A stretch of DNA of 64,000 bases from Candidatus Ozemobacteraceae bacterium (GCA_036567845.1 DATCTT010000187.1:385-64384); one strand, 5' to 3'. Counted from the first letter of the stretch, positions 4,429 through 14,980 are shown. Made by a program: numbers and translations. The notes: generated from the sequence alone by a model not told the origin.

Positions 4429-4564
4429 TCCGCGTCTTCAGCCTATTCCGCGCAATAAGATATAATATTATTTCGTATATTTGATGTGGGTGATTCGTTC
4501 GTCGTATAGGGGTGGGTTTCAACCCCGCGCCTGCAGCTGCGAACTCGCCGATCCCGACCGCGGC

Positions 4565-4610
4565 TTTGTGCCTTTGTGATTCGTTCTCTTTTGTGTCGTT
4601 GTGGTGAACG
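4565..4610. repeat. Degenerate T-rich copy of the octad-repeat arm (ctttgtg...ttgtgtcgttgtggtgaacg)
   Basis: Similar to the consensus right arm CTCTGTGTCTCTGTGGTTCG, in the convergent gap between the TPR gene and the ABC gene. Confidence 0.4.
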
Positions 4611-4622
4611 ATCTCCGGCTGG

Positions 4623-5353
4623 TCACTCCCGCGAGGTGAGGGCGAAGAACGCCTTTTCGAGCGAATTGTCATGCGGGCCGCACACCTCTTCCAGGGGGCC
4701 GGCGGCTCGCAGCGTCCCCTGATCGATGATCGCCGCGTGCGTCACCAGTTTTTCGACGACTTCGAGCACGTGGCTCGAGAACAGCACCGTCGAACCTTCC
4801 TCCGTCATGCGCACCAGCATCGAACGGCAATCCCGAACCGCCTGCGGATCGAGGCCATTGAACGGCTCATCCAGCAGCAGGACGGCGGGGCGGTGCAGGA
4901 CGATTCCTGCGAGCGCCAGCTTCTTCTTCATGCCAAAACTATAATTTACGGTATATTCGCCTGCGGCCGTTTCCAGGTCGAAGAAGCCCAGCAGCTCCCG
5001 GATGCGGGAGTCGCTCTCGGCGCCGGTGATGCCGCGCATGTCGGCGACGAACTCGAGAAACTGCCGGCCGGTCAAATAATCGTACAGGAACACCTCGTCG
5101 GGCAGATACCCGACCCGCGCCCGTACCTCGACGGACTGGCGCGCGACATCGAGGCCGTCGATGCGCGCCGATCCCGATGTAGGCTGGAGCAGGCCCATCA
5201 GCATGCGCAGGGTGGTCGTCTTCCCCGCCCCGTTCGGCCCGAGAAAGCCGAACATCGCTCCGCGCGGCACGTTCAGCGTCAGCCCTGCAACGGCCTGTTT
5301 ATCCCCGTAGCACTTCGTCAGCTGCTCGATCTCGATCATCGTTTCCGCCATGC
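4623..5353 (-). CDS. ABC transporter ATP-binding protein (ABC-2-type ATPase), no adjacent permease
   Basis: Walker A GPNGAGKTT, signature LSGGQ-like region, Walker B LLLDEP. Start placed at internal MAETMIEIEQL (5351-5353) with GAGG RBS, rather than the longer track ORF. Confidence 0.8.
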
Positions 5354-5444
5354 AAATCACCACCCGCCTCTTCCGTCCGCTTCCCCGAGAGAACATATCA
5401 GATACCAGGAACGCTTTACCACCGAGACACGAAAGAGACGAACC

Positions 5445-5546
5445 ACAGAGATGCTCCGTTGAAAAAATCAAGTATTTCAGGACCGAAGGCGAGGAAAACG
5501 CTCATCACAGAGCACACGATGAACACAGAGGTCTCACAGAGATTTC
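5445..5546. repeat. Octad-repeat element: arm fragment cgaaccacagag plus cluster catcacagagcacacgatgaacacagaggtctcacagag
   Basis: Tandem (R)CAC(A/G)GAG octads. Member of the repeat family seen at 8 or more loci in 5.4-14.7 kb. Confidence 0.6.
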
Positions 5547-5629
5547 TTTTCCCCCCATGAAGCCGTTTTCCATGGTGATGGCCCGAGACTTCTAGGGCGA
5601 CGAATGTTCAGAAGAGAACATACCCGATA

Positions 5630-5688
5630 CCGAGACACAGAGGTTGAAGAACAGTTCTTTCTCTGTGTCTCCGTGCCTCTGTGGTTCG
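5630..5688. repeat. Octad-repeat hairpin (gagacacagagg - 16-nt loop - tctctgtgtctccgtgcctctgtggttcg)
   Basis: Inverted CACAGAG/CTCTGTG arms. Right arm is identical in style to those at 12882-12912 and 14630-14660. Confidence 0.65.
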
Positions 5689-5695
5689 TCGGTGG

Positions 5696-6271
5696 TTATT
5701 TCATCCGCTCCTCGTGGCGGCGCTTGAGGGTGCGTGCGTAGGTGGCGAGCTCGGGAAACTCGTCGAATGCGGCGAATGTCGAGCCGTTGTCCCAGAAATC
5801 TCCCAGGGCCCGAAAGCCGGTGTGCTCGTATTCCGAGGCGGTGATCAGCATCTCGAGCTTGTCGATGGCGCGGACGAACCGCGCCTCGACCGACGCGTTC
5901 CCCTCGAACTCGGCGAACAGCTTCTGATAGCGCCCGCCGGCTTCTCCCAGCGGCGCCGTCATGTCCGAAACAGCCGCCTGCTCGGCCTCGGCTTTCTGTG
6001 TCCAGTATTTCAGAGCCGTGTAGGGGATGTCGCCCACCCGGCATTCGCCCAGCTCGTGAACCATCGCCAGCTCGAGCGCATGCGCCCGGTCGAGCCGGTG
6101 GCTGGTGACCTTGTCCGCCAGGAGCATCGTCAGCAGGGCGACCCCGAACGCGTGGTCGGCGATCGACTCGCAGTCCCGGATTCCGCGAAGCTGCCAGCCG
6201 GTCCGCCGGATTTTCTTGAGATTGAGAAAATCATGGAACAGGCCGTCGAGAGTGGTCAGATCGAAGCTCAT
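5696..6271 (-). CDS. HD-domain phosphohydrolase (YfbR-like 5'-deoxynucleotidase family)
   Basis: H..HD motif (HAFGVALL...VHELGE) and a YfbR-like layout. Start at internal MSFDLTTL (6271) with GGAGA RBS 7 nt upstream. Confidence 0.75.
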   Translation of the reverse strand: MSFDLTTLDGLFHDFLNLKKIRRTGWQLRGIRDCESIADHAFGVALLTMLLADKVTSHRLDRAHALELAMVHELGECRVGDIPYTALKYWTQKAEAEQAAVSDMTAPLGEAGGRYQKLFAEFEGNASVEARFVRAIDKLEMLITASEYEHTGFRALGDFWDNGSTFAAFDEFPELATYARTLKRRHEERMK

Positions 6272-6336
6272 GCATCGTCTCCGTCGTGAGTGTGATTGCG
6301 CGTCATGATACCCGCCAAAACGGGCCGGAGCAAACG

Positions 6337-6370
6337 CCGGAAAAAAAGAAGACCGGGGAGTGATCCCCGG
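6337..6370 (-). terminator. Intrinsic terminator/attenuator hairpin on the minus strand, inside the 5' leader of the HD gene
   Basis: On the minus strand: CCGGGGA-tcac-TCCCCGG followed by TCTTCTTTTTTTCC. There is no minus-strand CDS upstream of it, so it lies in the leader of the HD gene (start 6271). Confidence 0.45.
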
Positions 6371-6613
6371 CCCGAAAAATAAGGAGGCAAACAAAACCAT
6401 GATCCCTATCGCCCGGAAGTGAGGATTTCTTGAGAGTCACCTTCGCGACACCCACAGACATCCGCAAACATCCCCAAACACCGCCGCCATTTCCCAAAGA
6501 AAGACAGGCGCAGCGGTACCGAAAATTTTTCTCGGGAATTATCACGACGGATCCCCATTTCCTCTGGACGATGTCGTTTGTTTGATGGATTGCAGGCGTG
6601 CTATCTTGATTAC

Positions 6614-6859
6614 ATGCCTGTCGTTTTCAAATACGAAGGATACCGATTCTTCTTCTTTTCGAACGAAGGGAGCCCGCGTGAGCCTCTTCACATACATGTT
6701 CGGAGAGGGGATTGTCTTGCGAAGATTTGGCTGGATCCTGAGGTGAAGCTTGCAGAATCCTGGGGGTTCAGCCCAGCGGAGCAGAAATTGATCATGCTTC
6801 TCGCCGAAGAAAAACGCGAGATGATCAGGGGGTTTTGGAATGAATATTTCGCACATTGA
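6614..6859 (+). CDS. DUF4160 family protein
   Basis: MPVVFKYEGYRFFFFSNEGSPREPLHIHV is the canonical DUF4160 N-terminus. Confidence 0.7.
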   Translation: MPVVFKYEGYRFFFFSNEGSPREPLHIHVRRGDCLAKIWLDPEVKLAESWGFSPAEQKLIMLLAEEKREMIRGFWNEYFAH

Positions 6860-7112
6860 GCCTCTCGCGATCAACGTGGATTTCGATGAGAATGCCATGT
6901 GGGTGCAGCTTGCTGACGGCCGTCGCCTTGGTGTCCCGCTGGCGTTCTTTCCGCGGTTGTATACCGCCTCGCCCGACCAACTCAAAACGTGTGTCATTAG
7001 TGGCGGCGGTAGAGGATTGCACTGGGAGGCTCTGGATGAAGACATCTCGGTGCGAGGTCTTCTTCTGGGCCTCGGCGACCAGACCGTCGGCGATATGCGG
7101 AAGACAGGTTGA
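6840..7112 (+). CDS. DUF2442 family protein
   Basis: Small protein following DUF4160 with a 20-nt overlap, the usual DUF4160/DUF2442 gene pair. Confidence 0.65.
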   Translation: MNISHIEPLAINVDFDENAMWVQLADGRRLGVPLAFFPRLYTASPDQLKTCVISGGGRGLHWEALDEDISVRGLLLGLGDQTVGDMRKTG

Positions 7113-7981
7113 AACATTCTCGGGTGGAGCATCTCAGAGTCATTCATGATCGTGCCCTTTCATCGGCGGAAAACATGGCATGTGATGAAGTGCTGGGGCG
7201 GTCGATGCTGATTCGGGGCGGGGCGGCGTTTGCCCGGTTTTACCGATGGAGCCCGCCGACGTTGTCGTTCGGCTTTTTTCAGCCTGTCGAGCGATTGATC
7301 GACCCGGCCGCCGCTGCTACCGCCGGGATCGGTCTGGTGCGTCGCTCGTCCGGCGGGAAGATGGTGTTCCATGCCGACGAGATCACGTTCGCGATCGGGA
7401 TGCCCCTGCGGCTGCTCCGGGGTGACGCTCCGGGAAGCTCGGACTTTCTCACCTGTTTCCGGGCCGTCATGCAGCCTCTCGTCGATGCCCTGAGCGCGGC
7501 GGGGGTGCCGGCCCGATTCTCTGCGGATCACGAGATCGAGTCGGGACGGTCAGACCGTATCCATTGCTACGCGGCGGCAGCGGGCCACTCCGTCTATGCG
7601 GGGCCGAAAAAACTCGTGGGGGCAGCCGGCATCGTGAAAGGGGAGATTCTCACGGTTCATGGTTCCCTGCCGATCACGCGCACCCCGCTGCCCGGTACGC
7701 TGTTTCTCGGGCCGGCACGGTCGGCTGTCCTGCCCGATATCGCGGTGCTGACCGATTTCATCGGGGCCGAAGAGATCGGCATGCTTCCGGGGCAGATCGC
7801 CGGGTGTCTTGCTGAGCGGTTCAACCTCGTGACGGCCGAATCGGAATACGAGCCGGTCGAAAGCCGGGAAATCGAGATCCTGAGCCGTGAAAAATACGCC
7901 CGCCTCGACTGGAAATCCCTCCCATCCGCAACCTGGGAAGAATCCCTGGCTTCCGCAGATCTTCAGGACGCCCACGCATAG
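7109..7981 (+). CDS. Biotin/lipoate protein ligase family (LplA/LipB-like, BPL_LplA_LipB domain)
   Basis: N-terminal ...NMACDEVLG...ARFYRWSPPTLSFG resembles the BPL/LplA catalytic-domain opening. ATGA overlap with DUF2442, suggesting one operon. Confidence 0.5.
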   Translation: MKHSRVEHLRVIHDRALSSAENMACDEVLGRSMLIRGGAAFARFYRWSPPTLSFGFFQPVERLIDPAAAATAGIGLVRRSSGGKMVFHADEITFAIGMPLRLLRGDAPGSSDFLTCFRAVMQPLVDALSAAGVPARFSADHEIESGRSDRIHCYAAAAGHSVYAGPKKLVGAAGIVKGEILTVHGSLPITRTPLPGTLFLGPARSAVLPDIAVLTDFIGAEEIGMLPGQIAGCLAERFNLVTAESEYEPVESREIEILSREKYARLDWKSLPSATWEESLASADLQDAHA

Positions 7982-8123
7982 CCCAAAAGCACATCCGCAG
8001 ATGTCGCAGATGACACAGATTCCTTTATAGAAAAAACTTCGAAGGATGTCCGTGGATTCCGATCATCGCGAATCATTCTCCTCGTTTCCTGTATATCCGC
8101 GATCACGGATGTGGTGTGATACC

Positions 8124-8148
8124 CCGGGCGGGTTTGAAACCCGCCCCT
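8124..8148 (+). other. Perfect GC hairpin (gggcgggttt-ga-aacccgccc) downstream of the LplA-like gene
   Basis: 9-10 bp stem. A similar sequence (ggggtgggtttcaaccccgc) occurs at 4503-4525. Possible terminator/REP. Confidence 0.4.
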
Positions 8149-8211
8149 ACGTCCTCTCCGTGTTCGGTGGCTCTGGGAGGTGTGCCCTTCCGTGCCTTCA
8201 CGGTGAAAAAT

Positions 8212-8265
8212 CCTCTGTGCCTCTGTGATGCGTCTCCTCCGTCTCTTGTGGTGAGATGTTCTTCT
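8212..8265. repeat. Solo octad-repeat arm (cctctgtgcctctgtgatgcg...ctcttgtggtgag)
   Basis: CTCTGTG octads in the right-arm orientation without a clear partner. Confidence 0.5.
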
Positions 8266-8341
8266 CTGGGAGGTTGCAAACCGGGGACGGTTTGATTATC
8301 TTTCCTTGATTGTGCTGGAGACGACACAAAAGCCGAATGTC

Positions 8342-10531
8342 ATGCCTGAAATCGAAGTAACACAGCTCCCTCGCGGTGGAACCCTCATCCGGACCCCCGC
8401 GGGTGTGCTGCAGGTCGGGGCAACGCCCGAGACCATCAAGGACACCCTGCACATCATGGGTGATGTGCCGGACACCTTCGTGTTGCCCAACCGGCTCTTC
8501 AGCACCGAGCGCGGCGTCTCGCTGGCCGACATCGAGTTCCCCGCCTATTACAACTATTTCCTCAAGAAGCGCAGCATCAAGGTCATCGGCCAGACGCACC
8601 AGCTCGAGACGATCATGGGCGTGCTGAAAGAGGCCGTGCTCGGCCCCGACTCCATCAGCCTTCAGCGGGAATACCCCTTCGGCGTCAACCGCGAGCTCAT
8701 TCCCGATCTGCGGGCCGAGATGGAGTTCTTCCGCGCGAAAGACGCGTCCGGGCTGCGGAAGATGGAAATGAGCGACATGGCGATCGGCGTCCCGTGGGGC
8801 CCGAACAACCGCGTGCCGTTCGGAACCCTTGCCCTCGAGCGCACCCCGAAGGGCATGCTGCGTGTCGTCGATGGGGCCCGGGTGCTCGCCGAAGTGCCGC
8901 TGGATGTCACGTTCGGTGACCGCCAGTTCCCCGAGCGCAAAAAGCCGTTCGAGCCGCCCCTCTTCGGCGTGACGGTCATCGGCTCGGGCCACGGCTTCGA
9001 TCCGAAGGAGATGACGAGCGGCTTCATCGTCTGGGTGAACCGCCGCGGCATCCTCGTCGACCCGCCCGTCGACTCGACCCACTGGCTCAAGGCGATGGAC
9101 ATCAACCCCCGCCTGATCGACGACTGCATTCTCACCCACTGCCATGCCGACCACGACTCCGGCATTCTGCAGAAGATCCTCGAAGAGAAAAAAATCAATC
9201 TCTATACAACCGAGACGATCATGGAAAGCTGCGTGCGCAAGTATCGCGCGCTGACCGGACTGTCGCACAAGACGTTCGTCGGGCTGTTCCATTTCCATTC
9301 GGTGACGCTGCAAGTTCCGATCCGTATCCATGGCGGTGAGTTCCGGTTCTTCTACACGCTGCACTCGATCCCCACCATCGGTTTCGAGGTGTATTTCCAG
9401 GGAAAAAGCTTCGCCTACTCGTCGGATTCGCTCTACGATCCGCCGACCGTGCGCAAGCTGTTCGACATGGGCGCGATCAACCGGTACCGGATGATCGAGC
9501 TGATGAACTTTCCCTGGCATCACACGGCCATCTTCCATGAGGCCGGCATTCCGCCGATCCACACCCCGATCAAGAACTTGGCCGAGCTGCCCGAGAACGT
9601 CCAGGAGCGGCTGTATCTGATCCACGTGTCGGAACGCTCGATTCCGGCGGGAACGAAGCTGCGCAAGGCTCCGGCCGGCCCCGACGACACGCTGGTGATT
9701 CCCGTCACGGCCCCGGTCAGCAACGAGGCGCTGCAGTATCTCGACGTGCTCAGTCACATCGACCTGTTCTCGGAGCTTCCGATCGAGAAGGCCCGGGAGT
9801 TCCTGACGCTGGTCAAGGTCGAGACCTTCCATGAGGGCGACGTCATTTTCCGGCAGGGAACAGTCGGCGAGCGGTTCTTCATGGTCGTCAACGGTCGTGC
9901 CCAGGTGCGGCGCGACGGCGTCGTGCTGAAGACCTATACCAACAACGATTATTTCGGCGAGACCTCGATGATCCTCAACATGCCCCGCAATGCCGATGTC
10001 GTGGCCGAAAGCGAGCTGAAGGTGCTCGCGATGGATAAATACGACTTCCTGTATTTCATTCGCGGCTCCGAGATCGCCCGGCACATGAAGGTCATCGCCG
10101 AGAACCGCGAATACGACACCTGGACGCTGTTCGACGAAGCCCCGCTGCTGCACGGACTGTCGGCGACGCAGCGCACCCAGCTCCAGGGCATCATGACGCG
10201 GGTCGAGTTCGCCGACGAGAAGATCATCGCGAAGGAAGGCGCCGAGCGCGATACGATCTATCTCGTCGATTCCGGCACCGTCGCGATGTCCCGCTGTGGA
10301 CGCCGGGTGGCCCGGGCGCGGCGCGGCAGCCTGTTCATGCGGATCTACTCGACCCCGGCCCGGGGGCGGCACCGGTTCACCCTGACGGCCGCGGGGCCCG
10401 TGGTCGCATATACGATCGATACGATGGAGTTTTACCGCTTTCTGGAGCGGAATCCGGGGGTGTTCCTGCTGCTGCGCGAGGCGAAGATCCGAGCCCAGAT
10501 CGTCGTCGATGAGCGGAACGGCCGCCCGTGA
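8342..10531 (+). CDS. Fusion protein: N-terminal unknown domain + MBL-fold metallo-hydrolase (class-II phosphodiesterase-like HxHxDH) + two cyclic-nucleotide-binding (CAP-family) domains
   Basis: THCHADHDSG motif (HxHxDH). Two CNB signatures (FFMVVNGRAQV...DYFGETSMI and a second repeat). Alternative TTG/GTG starts at 8306/8312. The 724-aa antisense ORF is rejected. Confidence 0.75.
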   Translation: MPEIEVTQLPRGGTLIRTPAGVLQVGATPETIKDTLHIMGDVPDTFVLPNRLFSTERGVSLADIEFPAYYNYFLKKRSIKVIGQTHQLETIMGVLKEAVLGPDSISLQREYPFGVNRELIPDLRAEMEFFRAKDASGLRKMEMSDMAIGVPWGPNNRVPFGTLALERTPKGMLRVVDGARVLAEVPLDVTFGDRQFPERKKPFEPPLFGVTVIGSGHGFDPKEMTSGFIVWVNRRGILVDPPVDSTHWLKAMDINPRLIDDCILTHCHADHDSGILQKILEEKKINLYTTETIMESCVRKYRALTGLSHKTFVGLFHFHSVTLQVPIRIHGGEFRFFYTLHSIPTIGFEVYFQGKSFAYSSDSLYDPPTVRKLFDMGAINRYRMIELMNFPWHHTAIFHEAGIPPIHTPIKNLAELPENVQERLYLIHVSERSIPAGTKLRKAPAGPDDTLVIPVTAPVSNEALQYLDVLSHIDLFSELPIEKAREFLTLVKVETFHEGDVIFRQGTVGERFFMVVNGRAQVRRDGVVLKTYTNNDYFGETSMILNMPRNADVVAESELKVLAMDKYDFLYFIRGSEIARHMKVIAENREYDTWTLFDEAPLLHGLSATQRTQLQGIMTRVEFADEKIIAKEGAERDTIYLVDSGTVAMSRCGRRVARARRGSLFMRIYSTPARGRHRFTLTAAGPVVAYTIDTMEFYRFLERNPGVFLLLREAKIRAQIVVDERNGRP

Positions 10532-10542
10532 AAGGATAACCC

Positions 10543-11487
10543 ATGATCGACAAGTTCCAGGCGGTGCTGCTCGGATACGCGATCGGTGACGCTCTTGCCG
10601 CGCCGATCGAGGATGTCATCCGCGACCCGGCGATCGGCCATCAGCGCGTGACGGGGTATGTCAAAGCCATGCCGTCCCACCCGGTCGCCCATCTCGAGCC
10701 CGGCCAGTATTCGGATGAAACCCAGATCATGCTGCTCGTGGCCGAGAGCCTCGTCGAGAAACGCTCGTTCTCGGTCGACGATCTCGCCCACCGGTTCGTG
10801 GACTGGTACCAGACCCAGAAGCTGCGCACCGCCTGGCGGTTTCCGGGAAACACGATGATGAAGGCCTGCCGCAAACTCGCGGCCGGCGTTCCCTGGGCGC
10901 AGGCCGGATTCCCGTCGGCCGGCGTCGTCGCTTCGGCCCGGGCTGTTCCTATAGCTCTTGCTATGTGGCGTTCGCCGGGCCTGCTCAAGGATGCCCTCGA
11001 CAAGTCGTGCCGGATCACGCATACCGATCCGCGTGCGGTGGCCGGGGCGATTGTTCTGGCCACGGTGATCCGCATGGGGCTCGAGGGCAGCGAGCCCTCG
11101 GCGGATGTCATCGTGAATGCGGCGATCGAGCGGGCGCAGGGCTTCGCGCCCGAGATCGTCCGGCGGCTCAAGACGATGCGGGATGCGCTTCGCGCCGAAC
11201 CGGCCGTCGCCATGCAGCAGATCGGCGTCAGCGGCTTCGCCATGGAGGCGGTGCCGGCCGCGCTGTACTGGTTCCTGCGGCATCCGCGCAAGTTCGACGA
11301 GATGATCGTCGCCGCCGCCAATGTTGGCGGAGATGCCGACGCGATCGCAGCCATGGCCGGAGCCATGTTCGGCGCGTTCAACGGCCTGGCGGCCATTCCC
11401 GACAAGTGGTTCGACCGGCTCGAGAATGCCCCCCGCATCCGCCAGCTCGGCTGCGACCTCTACCGCCTCTCCACCCCCCAGAAGTAA
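10543..11487 (+). CDS. ADP-ribosylglycohydrolase family protein (DraG/ARH-like)
   Basis: LLGYAIGDALAAPIE and GGDADAIAAMAGAMFGAFNG match the ARH signatures (GDALG...E / GGDTD). Confidence 0.85.
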   Translation: MIDKFQAVLLGYAIGDALAAPIEDVIRDPAIGHQRVTGYVKAMPSHPVAHLEPGQYSDETQIMLLVAESLVEKRSFSVDDLAHRFVDWYQTQKLRTAWRFPGNTMMKACRKLAAGVPWAQAGFPSAGVVASARAVPIALAMWRSPGLLKDALDKSCRITHTDPRAVAGAIVLATVIRMGLEGSEPSADVIVNAAIERAQGFAPEIVRRLKTMRDALRAEPAVAMQQIGVSGFAMEAVPAALYWFLRHPRKFDEMIVAAANVGGDADAIAAMAGAMFGAFNGLAAIPDKWFDRLENAPRIRQLGCDLYRLSTPQK

Positions 11488-11491
11488 GGAA

Positions 11492-11698
11492 GACCGGGAA
11501 TTTTCATCACGGAGAACACGGAGAGCACAGAGAATTCACAGAGAGGACCTTTTGGAAAAGGGTTCTTTGTAAATTCATTCTGATTAGTTTGTTGTTGTGC
11601 TTTTTTATGGTGTTGTAGAGAATCTCTGTGAAACCTCTGTGTCCATTGTGTTCTCTGTGATTCGCTTTTGTCCCTCTCTCCCCCTCAGAAGGGAACAA
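11492..11698. repeat. 207-bp unit, copy 1 of a tandem duplication: octad left arm, ~85-nt AT-rich centre, octad right arm
   Basis: tcacggagaacacggagagcacagagaattcacagagagg ... aatctctgtgaaacctctgtgtccattgtgttctctgtgattcgc. Nearly identical to copy 2. Confidence 0.8.
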
Positions 11699-11880
11699 CA
11701 CCGGGAATTTTCATCACAGAGAACACGGAGAGCACAGAGAATTCACAGAGAGGACCTTTTGGAAAAGGGTTCTTTGTATATTCATTCTGATTAGTTTGTT
11801 GTTGTACTTTTTTATGGTGTTGTAGAAAATCTCTGTGAAACCTCTGTGTCCATTGTGTCCTCTGTGATTCGCTGTTGCTT
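11699..11880. repeat. 207-bp unit, copy 2 (3' tail diverged), ends 20 nt before the moaC start
   Basis: About 97% identical to copy 1 over ~175 nt. Confidence 0.8.
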
Positions 11881-11898
11881 TTTTATAAAGGGGTATAT

Positions 11899-12819
11899 AT
11901 GACTGAATCGCTGACGCATCTCGATCTTGAGGGGCGGGTGAAGATGGTGGACGTGGGGGGCAAGGCCGTCACGAAACGGCGCGCTGTTGCCTTCGGCTCG
12001 GTGCGCGTCGGCGAAAAGGCGCTTTCCCTTCTGCGCGACGGACAGATCGCCAAGGGCGATGCCTGGGCCGCGACCCGGGTGGCGGCTATCATGGCGGCTA
12101 AACGCACATCCGATCTGATCCCCCTGACCCACCCGATCCGCCTCGATGCGGTGAATATCACCCTCGCCCCCTGGGGCGCGGAGCGCGTCGCCATCGTTGC
12201 CGAAGCCGTGGCGAGCGACCGGACCGGTGTCGAGATGGAGGCCATGACGGCGGTTTCGGTTGCCCAGCTGAACCTGTATGACATGGTCAAGGGCGTGACG
12301 AAGGGCGTGATGCTCGAAAGCAGTCGCCTGCTGCTCAAAACCGGTGGCAAAAGCGGCGACTGGATGGGCGACGGCGTCGAAGCCGGCAGGATCGAGAAGC
12401 TCGCGACCAGCCGGGCAAAGGGTATTCCCAAAGATCCGACCGACGAGGTCATGGCCCGGGTCGGGTTTGGCGTCGAGGGGGATGCCCACGGCGGCGACTG
12501 GCACCGGCAGGTTTCCCTGCTCGGGATCGAGAGCATCCGGAAAATGCAGGAGAAAGGTCTGAAGGTGGATTTCGGCTCGTTTGCCGAGAATGTCGCCACC
12601 TCCGGAATATGCCTGTATGAGCTTCCTGTCGGTTCCCTGATCTGGAGCGAGGGCGGCGTTCTGCTCGAAGTGACGCAGATCGGCAAGGAGTGCCACACGA
12701 AGTGCGCCGTCTACCACAAGGCCGGCGACTGCGTCATGCCCCGTGAGGGCATCTTCGCCCGCGTCCTCGCCGGTGGCCCCCTCAAAACCACCCACCCCCT
12801 CCTCGCCATTAGGATGTGA
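11899..12819 (+). CDS. moaC: MoaC (cyclic pyranopterin monophosphate synthase) fused to a C-terminal MOSC domain
   Basis: MTESLTHLDLEGRVKMVDVGGKAVTKRRAVA...IPLTHPI is MoaC. C-terminus FAENVATSGI...LLEVTQIGKECHTKC matches the MOSC beta-barrel / conserved-Cys region. Confidence 0.8.
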   Translation: MTESLTHLDLEGRVKMVDVGGKAVTKRRAVAFGSVRVGEKALSLLRDGQIAKGDAWAATRVAAIMAAKRTSDLIPLTHPIRLDAVNITLAPWGAERVAIVAEAVASDRTGVEMEAMTAVSVAQLNLYDMVKGVTKGVMLESSRLLLKTGGKSGDWMGDGVEAGRIEKLATSRAKGIPKDPTDEVMARVGFGVEGDAHGGDWHRQVSLLGIESIRKMQEKGLKVDFGSFAENVATSGICLYELPVGSLIWSEGGVLLEVTQIGKECHTKCAVYHKAGDCVMPREGIFARVLAGGPLKTTHPLLAIRM

Positions 12820-12833
12820 GTGATGACGAGGGT

Positions 12834-12915
12834 GCACCACAGAGACACGGAGACACAGAGAAAGCGCTCGAAAAAGAATTCTTCTCTGTGCCTCTGTGTC
12901 TCTGTGGTTCGTTGA
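12834..12915. repeat. Complete octad-repeat hairpin (26-nt arms, 19-nt loop) between moaC-MOSC and mobB
   Basis: gcaccacagagacacggagacacagagaa-agcgctcgaaaaagaattc-ttctctgtgcctctgtgtctctgtggttcgttg. Confidence 0.8.
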
Positions 12916-12923
12916 AGCCCCCG

Positions 12924-13361
12924 ATGCGTATCATACGGTTTCTGGGGAGGTCGGGGAGCGGGAAGACGACGCTGATCGATGCTCTGGTGAAGCGGCTTTC
13001 GCACCTCCGGATCGCCGTCATCAAGCACACGCGCCATCCGCTCGACCCGCCGGCGTCCGGCAAGGACACCGCCTGCCACCTGGCCGCGGGGGCCGTCGCC
13101 AGCGCCGGTATCTCGCCCGGCCGAGCCGAGCTGTTCATCCAGGGGGACGTCGAGATCGGCATCGATGCAATGATCGCGTTCGTGGCGGACCGCGTCGATC
13201 TCGTGTTCGTCGAAGGCGCCCGCGAATACGACGCCCCGACCATCCTGATCGGCGATCTCCCAGACGGTTCTATTGCGAGCAATATCATAACCCGCCTGCC
13301 TGTCCATCCGGATGTCCCTCCCGATCTCCCGCAACGCCTTCTCTCGCCCTCTCATCCGTAG
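12924..13361 (+). CDS. mobB: Molybdopterin-guanine dinucleotide biosynthesis adapter MobB
   Basis: MRIIRFLGRSGSGKTTLIDALVKRL is the MobB P-loop N-terminus. Start at internal ATG 12924, just after the repeat. Confidence 0.75.
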   Translation: MRIIRFLGRSGSGKTTLIDALVKRLSHLRIAVIKHTRHPLDPPASGKDTACHLAAGAVASAGISPGRAELFIQGDVEIGIDAMIAFVADRVDLVFVEGAREYDAPTILIGDLPDGSIASNIITRLPVHPDVPPDLPQRLLSPSHP

Positions 13362-13440
13362 GGGGCATCACGATGCGCCCGGAATGTTCTTGGGATATCA
13401 GGATACGGTTTCACCACAGAGGCACAGAGACACAGAGTTC
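13340..13440. repeat. ~110-bp tandem unit, copy A (contains near-palindrome gcatcacgatgc and octad arm tcaccacagaggcacagagacacagag)
   Basis: Direct repeat of 13452-13548, overlapping the mobB 3' end. Confidence 0.6.
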
Positions 13441-13451
13441 GAGCCGAATAC

Positions 13452-13594
13452 CGCCCTCTCGCCCGTAGGGGCGCATCGCGATGCACCTGGGATATTCTCG
13501 AGATATCAGAACCGGTTTTCAATCACGGAGGAACCAAGGCACAGATTCTTCCAAGGGCTCTTCTCTGTGCCTCTGTGTCTCTGTGGTGAAGCGG
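13452..13594. repeat. ~110-bp tandem unit, copy B (perfect palindrome GCATCGCGATGC; degenerate arm caatcacggagg), then loop and full right arm ttctctgtgcctctgtgtctctgtgg
   Basis: Alignable to copy A. Right arm at 13561-13590. Confidence 0.6.
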
Positions 13595-13693
13595 TTTTCT
13601 CGAGGAGCTAACGATCTTCTGGCGGGATGACGATAGGTATCCCGTGATAGGAGACGTCATGATGGTTGGGCTCTGCCGGAATTCCGGGATTCG

Positions 13694-14149
13694 ATGAAGT
13701 ATCTGCTGGCTCTCGATCCGGGTTCCGACAAGTGCGGGTACGCCGTGGTGCGGTATGACCGCTCTCTCGTCGAAAAGGGAGTTGTGTACCTTGCCGAGCT
13801 GCACCGCACGCTTCAGCGCATATGCCGGGCGCCGCTTCCCGAGGTCATCGTGCTTGGCAGCGGAACGGCCGCGGCTGCCGTTTCCCATCTGATCGAAGAT
13901 CTCGATCTCGGCGTCCCCGTCCGCATCGGGGAGGAGCGCAACTCGACCAGGGAAGCGCGCGACCGGTACTTCCGGGATCATCCTCCGACTGGCCTCTGGC
14001 GGCTCGTTCCCCTGGGCCTTCAGATTCCTCCGGTTCCCGTCGACGACTACGCCGCCCTCATCATCGCCGAACGGTACATCATCAAGAACAAATTGGGGGA
14101 AGAGAACGCACCACAGAGGCACGGAGACACAGAGGTCGATCAAGGATGA
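13694..14149 (+). CDS. RuvX/YqgF-family (RNase H-fold) putative Holliday-junction resolvase / pre-16S rRNA nuclease
   Basis: LLALDPGSDKCGYAVV...EVIVLG...STREARDRY...ALIIAERY parallels YqgF motifs (LLGLDLGTKTIGVAV, ...ST.EA). The 3' end runs into the octad arm. Confidence 0.6.
   Translation: MKYLLALDPGSDKCGYAVVRYDRSLVEKGVVYLAELHRTLQRICRAPLPEVIVLGSGTAAAAVSHLIEDLDLGVPVRIGEERNSTREARDRYFRDHPPTGLWRLVPLGLQIPPVPVDDYAALIIAERYIIKNKLGEENAPQRHGDTEVDQG
14106..14134. repeat. Octad-repeat left arm (cgcaccacagaggcacggagacacagagg), just upstream of the GxxExxY gene
   Basis: Partner right arms lie at 14577-14660, on the other side of the gene. Confidence 0.7.
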
Positions 14150-14529
14150 AGTCGGGGATGGATTCATATGAGCTGACGAACGAGGTCATTGGTGCTGCGA
14201 TCGAGGTTCATAAAACCCTTGGACCGGGGCTTCTGGAGTCTATCTACGAAAGATGCCTCTGCCATGAGCTGAGTCTGCGTGGCATCGAATATGTCCAGCA
14301 GCTGGAAATTCCGCTGACCTATAAGGGAATGAGTCTGGACTCGTGTTATCGACTTGACATGATGGTTGTAGACCAGATCGTTGTTGAGGTGAAGTCCATC
14401 AAAACATTCGAGCCAATTCATACGGCTCAGATTCTGACCTATCTTCGATTGACCGGTAAACGACTTGGCCTGTTGATGAACTTCAACTCCCCAGTTCTTT
14501 CCAAAACTATCAAGCGAGTCATCCTCTGA
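14146..14529 (+). CDS. GxxExxY family protein
   Basis: MKSGMDSYELTNEVIGAAIEVHKTLGPGLLESIYERCL is the eponymous GxxExxY motif. Lower GC than neighbouring genes. Confidence 0.8.
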   Translation: MKSGMDSYELTNEVIGAAIEVHKTLGPGLLESIYERCLCHELSLRGIEYVQQLEIPLTYKGMSLDSCYRLDMMVVDQIVVEVKSIKTFEPIHTAQILTYLRLTGKRLGLLMNFNSPVLSKTIKRVIL

Positions 14530-14576
14530 ATATATGCATGGAGTACACGAATGACTCGCCATGAAAGCAGAAAAAC

Positions 14577-14660
14577 TCTGTGCCTCTGTGGGTCGTTGTC
14601 TAATAAAAGCTACCATGGTCTTGTCTTGGCTCTGTGTCTCCGTGTCTCTGTGGTTCGTTG
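14577..14660. repeat. Two direct octad-repeat right arms (ctctgtgcctctgtgggtcgttg ... ctctgtgtctccgtgtctctgtggttcgttg)
   Basis: Inverted relative to the left arm at 14106, so the GxxExxY gene sits inside the loop. Confidence 0.7.
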
Positions 14661-14679
14661 AAAAAGGAAAAATATTTTC

Positions 14680-14708
14680 TTGACTTTCGGAAAGTACACA
14701 AATATACT
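14680..14708 (+). promoter_or_regulatory. Sigma70-type promoter TTGACT-17 nt-TATACT driving the SLH-porin gene with a ~270-nt leader
   Basis: -35 TTGACT 14680-14685, -10 TATACT 14703-14708, exact 17-nt spacer. ATG at 14981. Confidence 0.7.
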
Positions 14709-14980
14709 CTCGGACCAAGGTGTAAGACCTCAAACACCAACCCAGGTGCACGGAAGGAGGTGCAACTGAAGTAGGTAGCCTGATAGGTGCGGTCCCAAAC
14801 CTGAGGGCGAAGAAGACAAGTAGAAGCGAGATCTTAAGGGTGCCAACGGAAAAACTGGAAGGGAACGTGGATACTTCAAGTGAAACCGGAAACACCCCCA
14901 AAAGAGAACAAATCGAACGGATTCTTCCCCGCCAAGTGGTAAAAACTCCAAAAACCAAAATACCGAAAAGGGGAAAATCA

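Follow-up and report, generated by a model that had tools for sequence, protein, structure and literature searches.

We analyzed a 64,000-nucleotide (nt) stretch of the genome of a Candidatus Ozemobacteraceae bacterium (GCA_036567845.1, DATCTT010000187.1:385-64384; hereinafter the window, meaning the whole stretch), in which gene spacers carry palindromic elements built from tandem octads, and one pair of the arms of these elements encloses a gene for a small predicted nuclease of the GxxExxY family. The genes concerned code for an ABC ATPase, an HD hydrolase, a DUF4160/DUF2442 pair, an LplA-like protein, a cNMP/MBL protein, an ADP-ribosylglycohydrolase (ARH), MoaC-MOSC, MobB, a RuvX-like protein and GxxExxY, and are followed over 15-64 kb by an S-layer and glycan biosynthesis cluster. 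The gene calls of the initial annotation of this DNA, which had flagged the repeats as a palindromic intergenic family, proved correct.

The octad hairpins are indeed a real repeat family, and an origin by chance or from low-complexity sequence is rejected. The three-octad arm CACAGAGRCACRGAGACACAGAG has seven matches in the window at three or fewer mismatches, and none in 100 shuffles. The heptads CACAGAG and CTCTGTG occur 18 and 21 times, respectively, as against an expectation of 4.2 each, with their clusters all inside 5444-14652. A generic scan for at least two tandem C-R-C-R-R-A-R units recovered 15 arms, all inside 4564-14652 and no farther than 10 kb from the window’s GxxExxY gene, where about 0.5 would be expected by chance (shuffle control: mean 0.49, maximum 4). 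As the initial annotation had also suggested, the elements are of the kind of repetitive extragenic palindromes (REPs), bacterial interspersed mosaic elements or miniature inverted-repeat transposable elements (MITEs): they are intergenic, multi-copy, inverted doublets that form hairpins, with terminal inverted repeats, and are found between co-directional genes, 13-16 nt past stop codons and down to 8 nt before the next start.

Folding the window as single-stranded DNA (free energy, dG, with a z score) yielded five hairpins, four of them strong and one truncated, in addition to several solo arms. These elements fall into two subfamilies: type A with three units at an 8-nt period, and type B with four units spaced 9, 9 and 11 nt, represented at 11504-11870 and in a solo arm. 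A type-A hairpin with 3+3 units and a 23-nt loop fills the MoaC-MOSC/MobB spacer (12833..12915; fold of 12828-12920: dG -25.8, z -5.6), 13 nt past the upstream stop codon and 8 nt ahead of the MobB ATG, and is kept in the relative L208. Another lies 3′ of MobB (13408..13592; fold of 13400-13602: dG -44.7, z -5.5) with a 125-nt loop, and its right arm has an ortholog in that of the sole hairpin of L202, a relative lacking mobB. The two type-B hairpins stand in tandem: copy 1 (11504..11663; arms 11506-11544 and 11623-11661, 78-nt loop; fold of 11498-11675: dG -28.6, z -4.65) begins 16 nt past the ARH stop codon, and copy 2 occupies 11711..11870 (arms 11713-11751 and 11830-11868). They are contained in a 207-nt tandem duplication of 93% identity (11466-11670 / 11673-11877) that takes in the whole type-B hairpin together with the last 20 nt of the ARH gene, and is an ordinary duplication rather than a transposition. 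The truncated hairpin, of type A, is in the ABC ATPase/HD spacer (5636..5689; fold of 5625-5695: z -3.2) and consists of a left arm of one unit, a 16-nt loop and a right arm of three units with a GGTTCGTC tail.

No local fold was obtained at 5496-5550, 8195-8270 or 14570-14665, and these regions accordingly hold solo arms. The first is a purine-type arm of subfamily B with four units (5504..5545), 86-90% complementary to the right arms at 11621-11669 and 11827-11868; the second is a degenerate right arm 3′ of the LplA-like gene (8213..8265; CTCTGTGCCTCTGTGATGCGTC...TTGTGGTGAGATG); and the third spans 14576-14659. A further solo stretch of degenerate pyrimidine-type arm sequence at 4564..4610 (CTTTGTGCCTTTGTGATTCGTT then ...TTGTGGTGAAC), once described as a T-rich decayed copy, instead displays the CTTTGTG (CACAAAG) variant, which is not random decay; the same variant fills the ARH-MoaC spacer of a relative. 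Among the copies initially listed, those at 12834-12915, 13411-13594 and 11492-11880 and, in truncated form, 5630-5688 were borne out as hairpins by folding, unlike those at the three regions without a local fold. Likewise, the proposed loop range of 16 to ~85 nt accommodates loops of 16, 23 and ~78 nt and is too narrow for the loop of 125 nt and a gene-filled one of 495 nt.

This last loop belongs to a pair of arms that surrounds the only GxxExxY gene of the window. On the + strand, the left, purine arm (14105..14134) and the outer right arm (14630..14659; three units and a GGTTCGTT tail) are 93% complementary with 495 nt between them, and enclose the GxxExxY gene (14146..14529, 127 aa) followed by an inner right arm (14576..14597; two units and a GGGTCGTTG tail). 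The left arm doubles as the coding sequence for the C-terminal tail of the upstream RuvX-like open reading frame (ORF); the stop codon of this ORF and the start codon of GxxExxY overlap as ATGA. The initial annotation had listed 14577-14660 as a separate copy; its arms pair with 14105-14134 across the gene. It had rightly remarked on arms split around a gene, which turned out to be the key clue because the enclosed gene codes for a GxxExxY nuclease; it missed both this link and the distribution of the arms across phyla.

The enclosed protein is recovered by TIGR04256 (E 3e-44) and PF13366 (PDDEXK_3), above the curated cut-off of the hidden Markov model, and thereby belongs to a PD-(D/E)XK nuclease family, with D71, E81 and K83 as its D...ExK residues. 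In the family alignment D71, E81 and E20/E31/E41 are invariant and K83 is nearly so (at least 90%). The AlphaFold2 model (predicted local distance difference test score 93.7) has a Cas4-like fold; the protein is a predicted nuclease. A comparison with PADLOC gave weak Cas4 similarity only, and neither PHROGs nor a profile search of the PDB sequences returned a match. The literature lists PDDEXK_3 as “unknown, multiple transfers”. The family is large, with more than 7,900 clusters of relatives at E ≤ 1e-10, and some of the annotated N-termini (MNHRDTESTE..., ..TTEAQRHRE..) are translated arm sequence.

Nearly every GxxExxY gene that we sampled bears octad arms. In 80 metagenomic loci selected solely for encoding a GxxExxY relative, at 50-60% identity, the flanks contain three or more octad units in 72, and a bracketing inverted repeat is seen at ~65 of 78; with strict criteria both arms are present at 36 of 69 GxxExxY loci versus 0 of 151 displaced control intervals. 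Approached from the side of the repeat, loci selected by an octad 23-mer include four arm pairs whose loops measure 369-584 nt; a GxxExxY gene is enclosed by two of them (L058 and L107; phmmer 4e-43 and 7e-38). The other two are a CACGAAG-type hairpin nested in the loop of a CACAGAG-type hairpin (L014:6032-6661) and an AT-rich loop without an ORF (L114). Over all fetched loci, most of them selected by GxxExxY, the arm-pair loops are bimodal in length, at 0-200 nt or ~370-610 nt, the latter class being the size of one gene. The gene is always positioned exactly in the loop, and the inner and outer arm boundaries are equal in filled and gene-less copies. Gene-less and gene-bearing copies carry one arm family. 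In a plasmid of Fusobacteria bacterium ZRK30 (L314:1180-1960) we observed a GxxExxY gene without octad arms, flanked by direct AT-rich repeats of ~45 nt (aatcagtgaaaa..agatttaatccgtgtacct); the flank of GxxExxY may differ in AT-rich lineages.

The heptads across these loci (CACAGAG, CACGGAG, CGCAGAG, CGCGGAG, CACGAAG, CGCAAAG, CACAAAG and CACGGAA) are all compatible with C-R-C-R-R-A-R. Co-variation between the two arms is evident at positions 2, 4 and 5 of the heptad (Fisher p 1e-18 to 1e-21 over 136 distinct hairpins, their relatedness being ignored), and 88% of the arm positions form Watson-Crick pairs. The mismatches comprise 49 of the G:T plus T:G kind versus 43 of the A:C plus C:A kind, i.e., there is no sense-strand G:U bias, and selection on an RNA structure of the sense strand therefore gains no support; this spectrum is equally compatible with a palindrome at the DNA level, a function shared by both strands, or arms that diverged neutrally.

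The initial annotation had named confinement of the motif to the window, without conservation of structure, as an outcome that would speak against a repeat family. On the contrary, an exact-match search with one genome per species found the 23-mer in at least 120 genome stretches. Among the matches listed are Acidobacteriota, Planctomycetota, Gemmatimonadota, Verrucomicrobiota, Spirochaetota, Chloroflexota, Alpha- and Betaproteobacteria (including cultured Undibacterium, Pelomonas, Magnetospirillum and Propionivibrio), Clostridia, Prevotellaceae and one metagenome-assembled genome of Methanotrichaceae. We counted 78 arm pairs and 75 solo arms in these listed stretches; almost every pair is a hairpin whose loop measures 6-190 nt, and the usual outer ends are TTCACC...GGTGAA or AACC...GGTT. 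The 23-mer is also present on 99 IMG/VR contigs, where the hairpins lie between phage genes; one such contig (L217:5740-6100) displays three tandem 120-nt copies of a hairpin unit. A BLAST search of plasmids and cultured phages with a consensus hairpin gave no match, probably due to low-complexity masking and the short query.

Closer to the window, we compared Ozemobacteraceae relatives (L202, L203/L204, L207/L208, L210/L211) drawn from three further assemblies and a number of metagenome samples; between these relatives, hairpins turn over and gene order is fixed. The order HD-LplA-cNMP/MBL-ARH-MoaC-MobB-RuvX-like-GxxExxY-SLH is kept save for losses of mobB and of the DUF4160/DUF2442 pair; the intervening genes are therefore ordinary syntenic chromosomal genes and not a cassette array. 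The orthologous spacers between them have no hairpin, different hairpins or duplicated hairpins. Thus, the LplA-cNMP spacer, with a degenerate arm in the window, carries a complete hairpin of four units in L208 and is essentially bare in L210; the ARH-MoaC spacer has the two tandem type-B hairpins in the window, a CACAAAG/CACGAAG type in L208 and a CACAAAG type in L210; and the MoaC-MobB spacer has one hairpin common to the window and L208, and a CGC-type element in L210. In L202 (1000-1205 vs window 12805-13700) mobB is absent and one hairpin stands in place of the two that flank mobB, a pattern that fits loss of the gene through recombination of one hairpin with the other. L210 (100-480 vs window 6270-7110) lacks the DUF4160/DUF2442 pair, and its HD-LplA spacer is without a hairpin. 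Where one Ozemobacteraceae species yielded contigs in different samples, these are identical over the hairpins.

Comparisons of complete genomes of cultured strains, made between species or genera, further show the whole arm-gene-arm unit to be present or absent in conserved operon spacers. In Bacteroides finegoldii the radA stop is followed by GTTCAC-CACAGAGgaCGCAGAGgaCACGGAG, the GxxExxY gene, CTCTGTGacCTCTGTGtcCTCTGTG-GTGAA and the aaaatATG of the next gene; the equivalent radA|FAD spacer in Parabacteroides distasonis is empty and 13 nt long. In Phocaeicola massiliensis (L317:830-1530) the same spacer is taken up by an unrelated ORF (~700 nt) that has no octad arms, implying that this spacer repeatedly accepts insertions. 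Similarly, Sphingomonas parapaucimobilis has a GxxExxY gene with CGCGAAG arms in the fabD/fabG spacer, for which S. paeninsulae has a plain 33-nt spacer with no arms. In both cultured cases GxxExxY is co-oriented with the operon, with no space for a promoter of its own. The empty Bacteroidales and Sphingomonas spacers are without any hairpin; in other words, arms and gene appear together.

We favor, at a probability of roughly 60%, the interpretation that the octad hairpins are the gene-less members, comparable to MITEs or to REPINs (hairpin-forming inverted REP doublets), of a widespread palindromic family whose complete form is arm-GxxExxY-arm. The complete unit is best read as a left arm of three to four tandem C-R-C-R-R-A-G units, a GxxExxY gene of ~125 codons and a complementary right arm. 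In the window, one such unit (14105-14659) is preceded, over 10 kb, by about nine spacer copies that have no gene, either hairpins or solo arms, and the family looks like an apparently undescribed selfish DNA element. Mechanistically, the nuclease would recognize the arms, probably in the form of a DNA hairpin, a cruciform or a binding-site array, and might cause full and gene-less elements alike to be copied or inserted, by analogy with the REP-associated tyrosine transposases (RAYTs) and REPINs. Recognition by a conserved GxxExxY protein could hold the arm sequence near constant across phyla, and might account for the tolerance of purine transitions only and for the recurrence of the 23-mer. 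Copies would survive only in spacers between co-directional genes, and the GxxExxY gene would be expressed through read-through transcription from the host. A bolder proposal, which we advance tentatively and with less than even confidence, is that arm-GxxExxY-arm constitutes a new class of minimal autonomous mobile element, in which a Cas4-like PD-(D/E)XK nuclease of ~125 aa recognizes octad-array hairpins and propagates itself along with large populations of gene-less hairpins in a REPIN-RAYT-like partnership built on an unrelated enzyme, and which has moved horizontally across most bacterial phyla, some archaea and phages, colonizing operon spacers.

Several observations weigh against these proposals. 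That GxxExxY cuts or moves the arms is something we infer from sequence, and no defined cleavage site was found. Direct repeats are not evident at the ends of 58 hairpins or at the filled and empty sites, the compared sites being highly diverged, and a two-step history with the hairpin arriving before the gene is possible, since the comparisons span species or genera. GxxExxY proteins whose arms share a heptad type are about as similar (59.3% identity) as those whose types differ (58.5%; permutation p 0.10), which is not what tight co-evolution of a protein with its site would predict. Moreover, the RuvX-like|GxxExxY site has type-A arms in the window and 4-unit type-B arms in L210, indicating that arms can be exchanged independently of the gene. 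No GxxExxY gene was found in 907 kb of viral contigs with 216 arms, and five arm pairs surround an ORF other than GxxExxY, at four viral-contig loci and one genome locus (L042). The four phage ORFs so bracketed have no Pfam match; such viral-contig pairs (L238:9165-9573 and 849-1254; L233/L304) bracket ORFs of 112-118 aa.

The main rival explanation sees the hairpins as independent REP-like elements that serve as homing sites: GxxExxY would cut gene-less ones, probably at the loop or cruciform, and be copied in by recombination on arm homology, with the gene-less window copies being potential landing sites rather than derivatives of the gene-carrying unit. Such a mechanism agrees with the exact placement of the gene in the loop and the equal arm boundaries of filled and gene-less copies, with an arm type that does not follow the protein phylogeny and may vary even where the gene is orthologous, and with the nested hairpin of L014, by which loops can be seen to accept insertions. 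Palindromic sites would in general suit a dimeric PD-(D/E)XK enzyme, and hairpins abound on viral contigs that have no GxxExxY gene. However, it leaves the spread of gene-less hairpins to many spacers and phyla unexplained, gene-less loops of 6-190 nt are a poor fit to a fixed recognition site, and the empty Bacteroidales and Sphingomonas spacers have no hairpin whatever, arms and gene appearing together. We consider it rather unlikely.

Less likely still is that the hairpins are host-selected RNA elements, whose transcripts stabilize the mRNA upstream of them or provide sites for RNase III processing or for insulation between cistrons, with spread being secondary. Roles of the kind of mRNA stabilization and RNase III processing are known for REPs and for the stems of 23S rRNA intervening sequences, and the very stable stems, the co-variation of the arms, their close spacing to the stops and starts of co-directional genes and the same placement between phage genes would all be expected of such elements. 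Yet, the arms show no G:U bias on the sense strand, there is no T-tail, and hence these are not intrinsic terminators, and near-identical 23-mers across phyla together with the rapid turnover of orthologous spacers speak for spread rather than local selection; this explanation would account for tolerance or benefit of the elements and not for their origin. The cassette-array layout envisaged by the initial annotation, with a gene plus downstream hairpin as the mobile cassette and the hairpins as attC-like sites of an integron-like system, is effectively refuted. In its favor, most genes in 6578-14529 share a strand and many have a hairpin behind them, and the DUF4160/DUF2442 pair and mobB are each absent in one relative. 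Against this, gene order is conserved in all the relatives compared, MoaC and MobB are functionally linked housekeeping genes, RYYYAAC/GTTRRRY boxes were not found at the octad elements, whose ends are TTCACC/GGTGAA or GGTTCG, no integrase was detected in the 64 kb (50 largest ORFs scanned), and the GxxExxY gene is inside a hairpin rather than between complete hairpins.

The window has other features of note. A second repeat family consists of GTAG-tagged REP-like palindromes at 4505-4530, 8126-8152 (- strand), 13355-13382 and 13461-13490 (e.g., cgTAGGGGCGGGTTTCAAACCCGCCC, ccGTAGGGGCGCATCGCGATGCacc). One copy resides in the loop of the octad hairpin at 13408-13592, with similar copies in L208 and L203. 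The GTAG tag is typical of RAYT-associated REPs, and no RAYT was present among the window ORFs scanned. At 5440..5470 a single octad unit, AACCACAGAG, is followed by the junction motif ATGCTCCGTTGAAA. This motif, CACAGAGAT(G/A)CTCCGTTGAAA, recurs after a single octad (window 5444-5466, L208:6489-6512 and, inverted, L202:38-62), is found at contig ends, rearrangement points or places of synteny loss in the relatives, and may be the end of a further element type. Directly past the last octad arm is a promoter-like TTGACT-17-TATACT (14680-14708), in a non-coding leader of ~300 nt 5′ of the SLH gene that is highly conserved in Ozemobacteraceae (window 14660-14980, L202:2160-2467, L203:1440-1770, L210:7720-8033). 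A short-read Logan contig of the same organism (L121, equivalent to window 5661-11541) has both ends inside octad arms, and several JGI contigs of relatives begin or end at hairpins; thus, the hairpins fragment short-read and metagenome assemblies.

GxxExxY is among the commonest small proteins without a known function, and our results point to a role that can be tested and to a specific DNA partner. Were the nuclease to mobilize the arms, the system would be a PD-(D/E)XK counterpart to the HUH-based REPIN-RAYT systems, with a repeat that crosses phyla; this conservation raises the questions of the route of horizontal spread and of the constraint on the C-R-C-R-R-A-G code. On the practical side, besides breaking short-read assemblies, the arms when translated yield spurious N- or C-terminal extensions (e.g., ...HRDTEAQR...).

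The statement of the initial annotation that no known repeat family matches these elements stood, with Rfam 15 and literature text as the sole references compared. Rfam 15 gave no match at the gathering score, the sub-threshold microRNA-precursor matches to a perfect hairpin being spurious; the octad sequences were absent from the literature text searched, where no description of these repeats was found under GxxExxY, PF13366 or TIGR04256 either. Among the 50 largest window ORFs, Pfam detected no transposase, integrase, RAYT or Y1_Tnp. Intrinsic terminators were rejected as candidates, none having been called and the tails being GGTTCGTTG or GGTGAAG, as were arrays of CsrA sites, an idea prompted by GGA in the octads, which is merely one among several purine-transition variants of the heptad.

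As for known systems, the octad region resembles integron attC sites, including clusters of these lacking integron integrases (CALIN arrays), in having imperfect palindromes after genes in a one-strand array for which a folded single-strand function is conceivable, and departs from them in the lack of core boxes and integrase, the synteny of its genes and the location of a gene inside a hairpin. With the free-standing homing endonuclease genes of phages (intronless homing) it shares a small, co-oriented nuclease gene between conserved genes that is present or absent in relatives; those genes, unlike the octad element, have no inverted arms or gene-less derivatives and are of the GIY-YIG and HNH families. 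Intervening sequences of 23S rRNA that contain a small ORF, for the S23p or four-helix-bundle protein, within a long stem are comparable as compact promoterless ORFs between complementary arms inside a host transcription unit. In contrast, the octad elements are in spacers of protein-coding operons, in a window without rRNA, and their enclosed protein is a predicted nuclease. Bacterial MITEs such as Correia/NEMIS, ERIC and RUP are likewise non-coding, bounded by inverted repeats, situated in intergenic DNA and co-transcribed with their neighbors, and the apparent kinship to a longer gene-bearing form is a further parallel, as arm-GxxExxY-arm shares the hairpin arms. The protein of this longer form is, however, not a recognized transposase, and the octad elements differ from MITEs in an arm that is an octad array and in a far wider range of hosts; no target-site duplication was seen at the diverged sites compared. 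We know of no insertion sequence family with a GxxExxY gene or octad-arm ends.

The closest parallel is with REPIN-RAYT systems: both feature short intergenic high-copy palindromes, inverted hairpin doublets and tandem arrays, as well as one nuclease gene flanked by inverted cognate repeats with many gene-less copies for each copy of the gene. REP superfamilies are defined by a GTAG or CGTC tetranucleotide tag (PMC3733652), unlike the octad arms, which are untagged, consist of 3-4 tandem units of 8-9 nt and end in (T)TCACC / GGTGA(A) or AACC / GGTT(CG). In place of an HUH Y1 transposase, the gene of the octad element codes for a PD-(D/E)XK (Cas4-like) protein of 125 aa. Finally, whereas REPIN families are lineage-specific and vertically inherited (PMC3116915, PMC3733652, 10.1101/2022.05.22.493013), the octad arm sequence is common to many phyla and to viral contigs.

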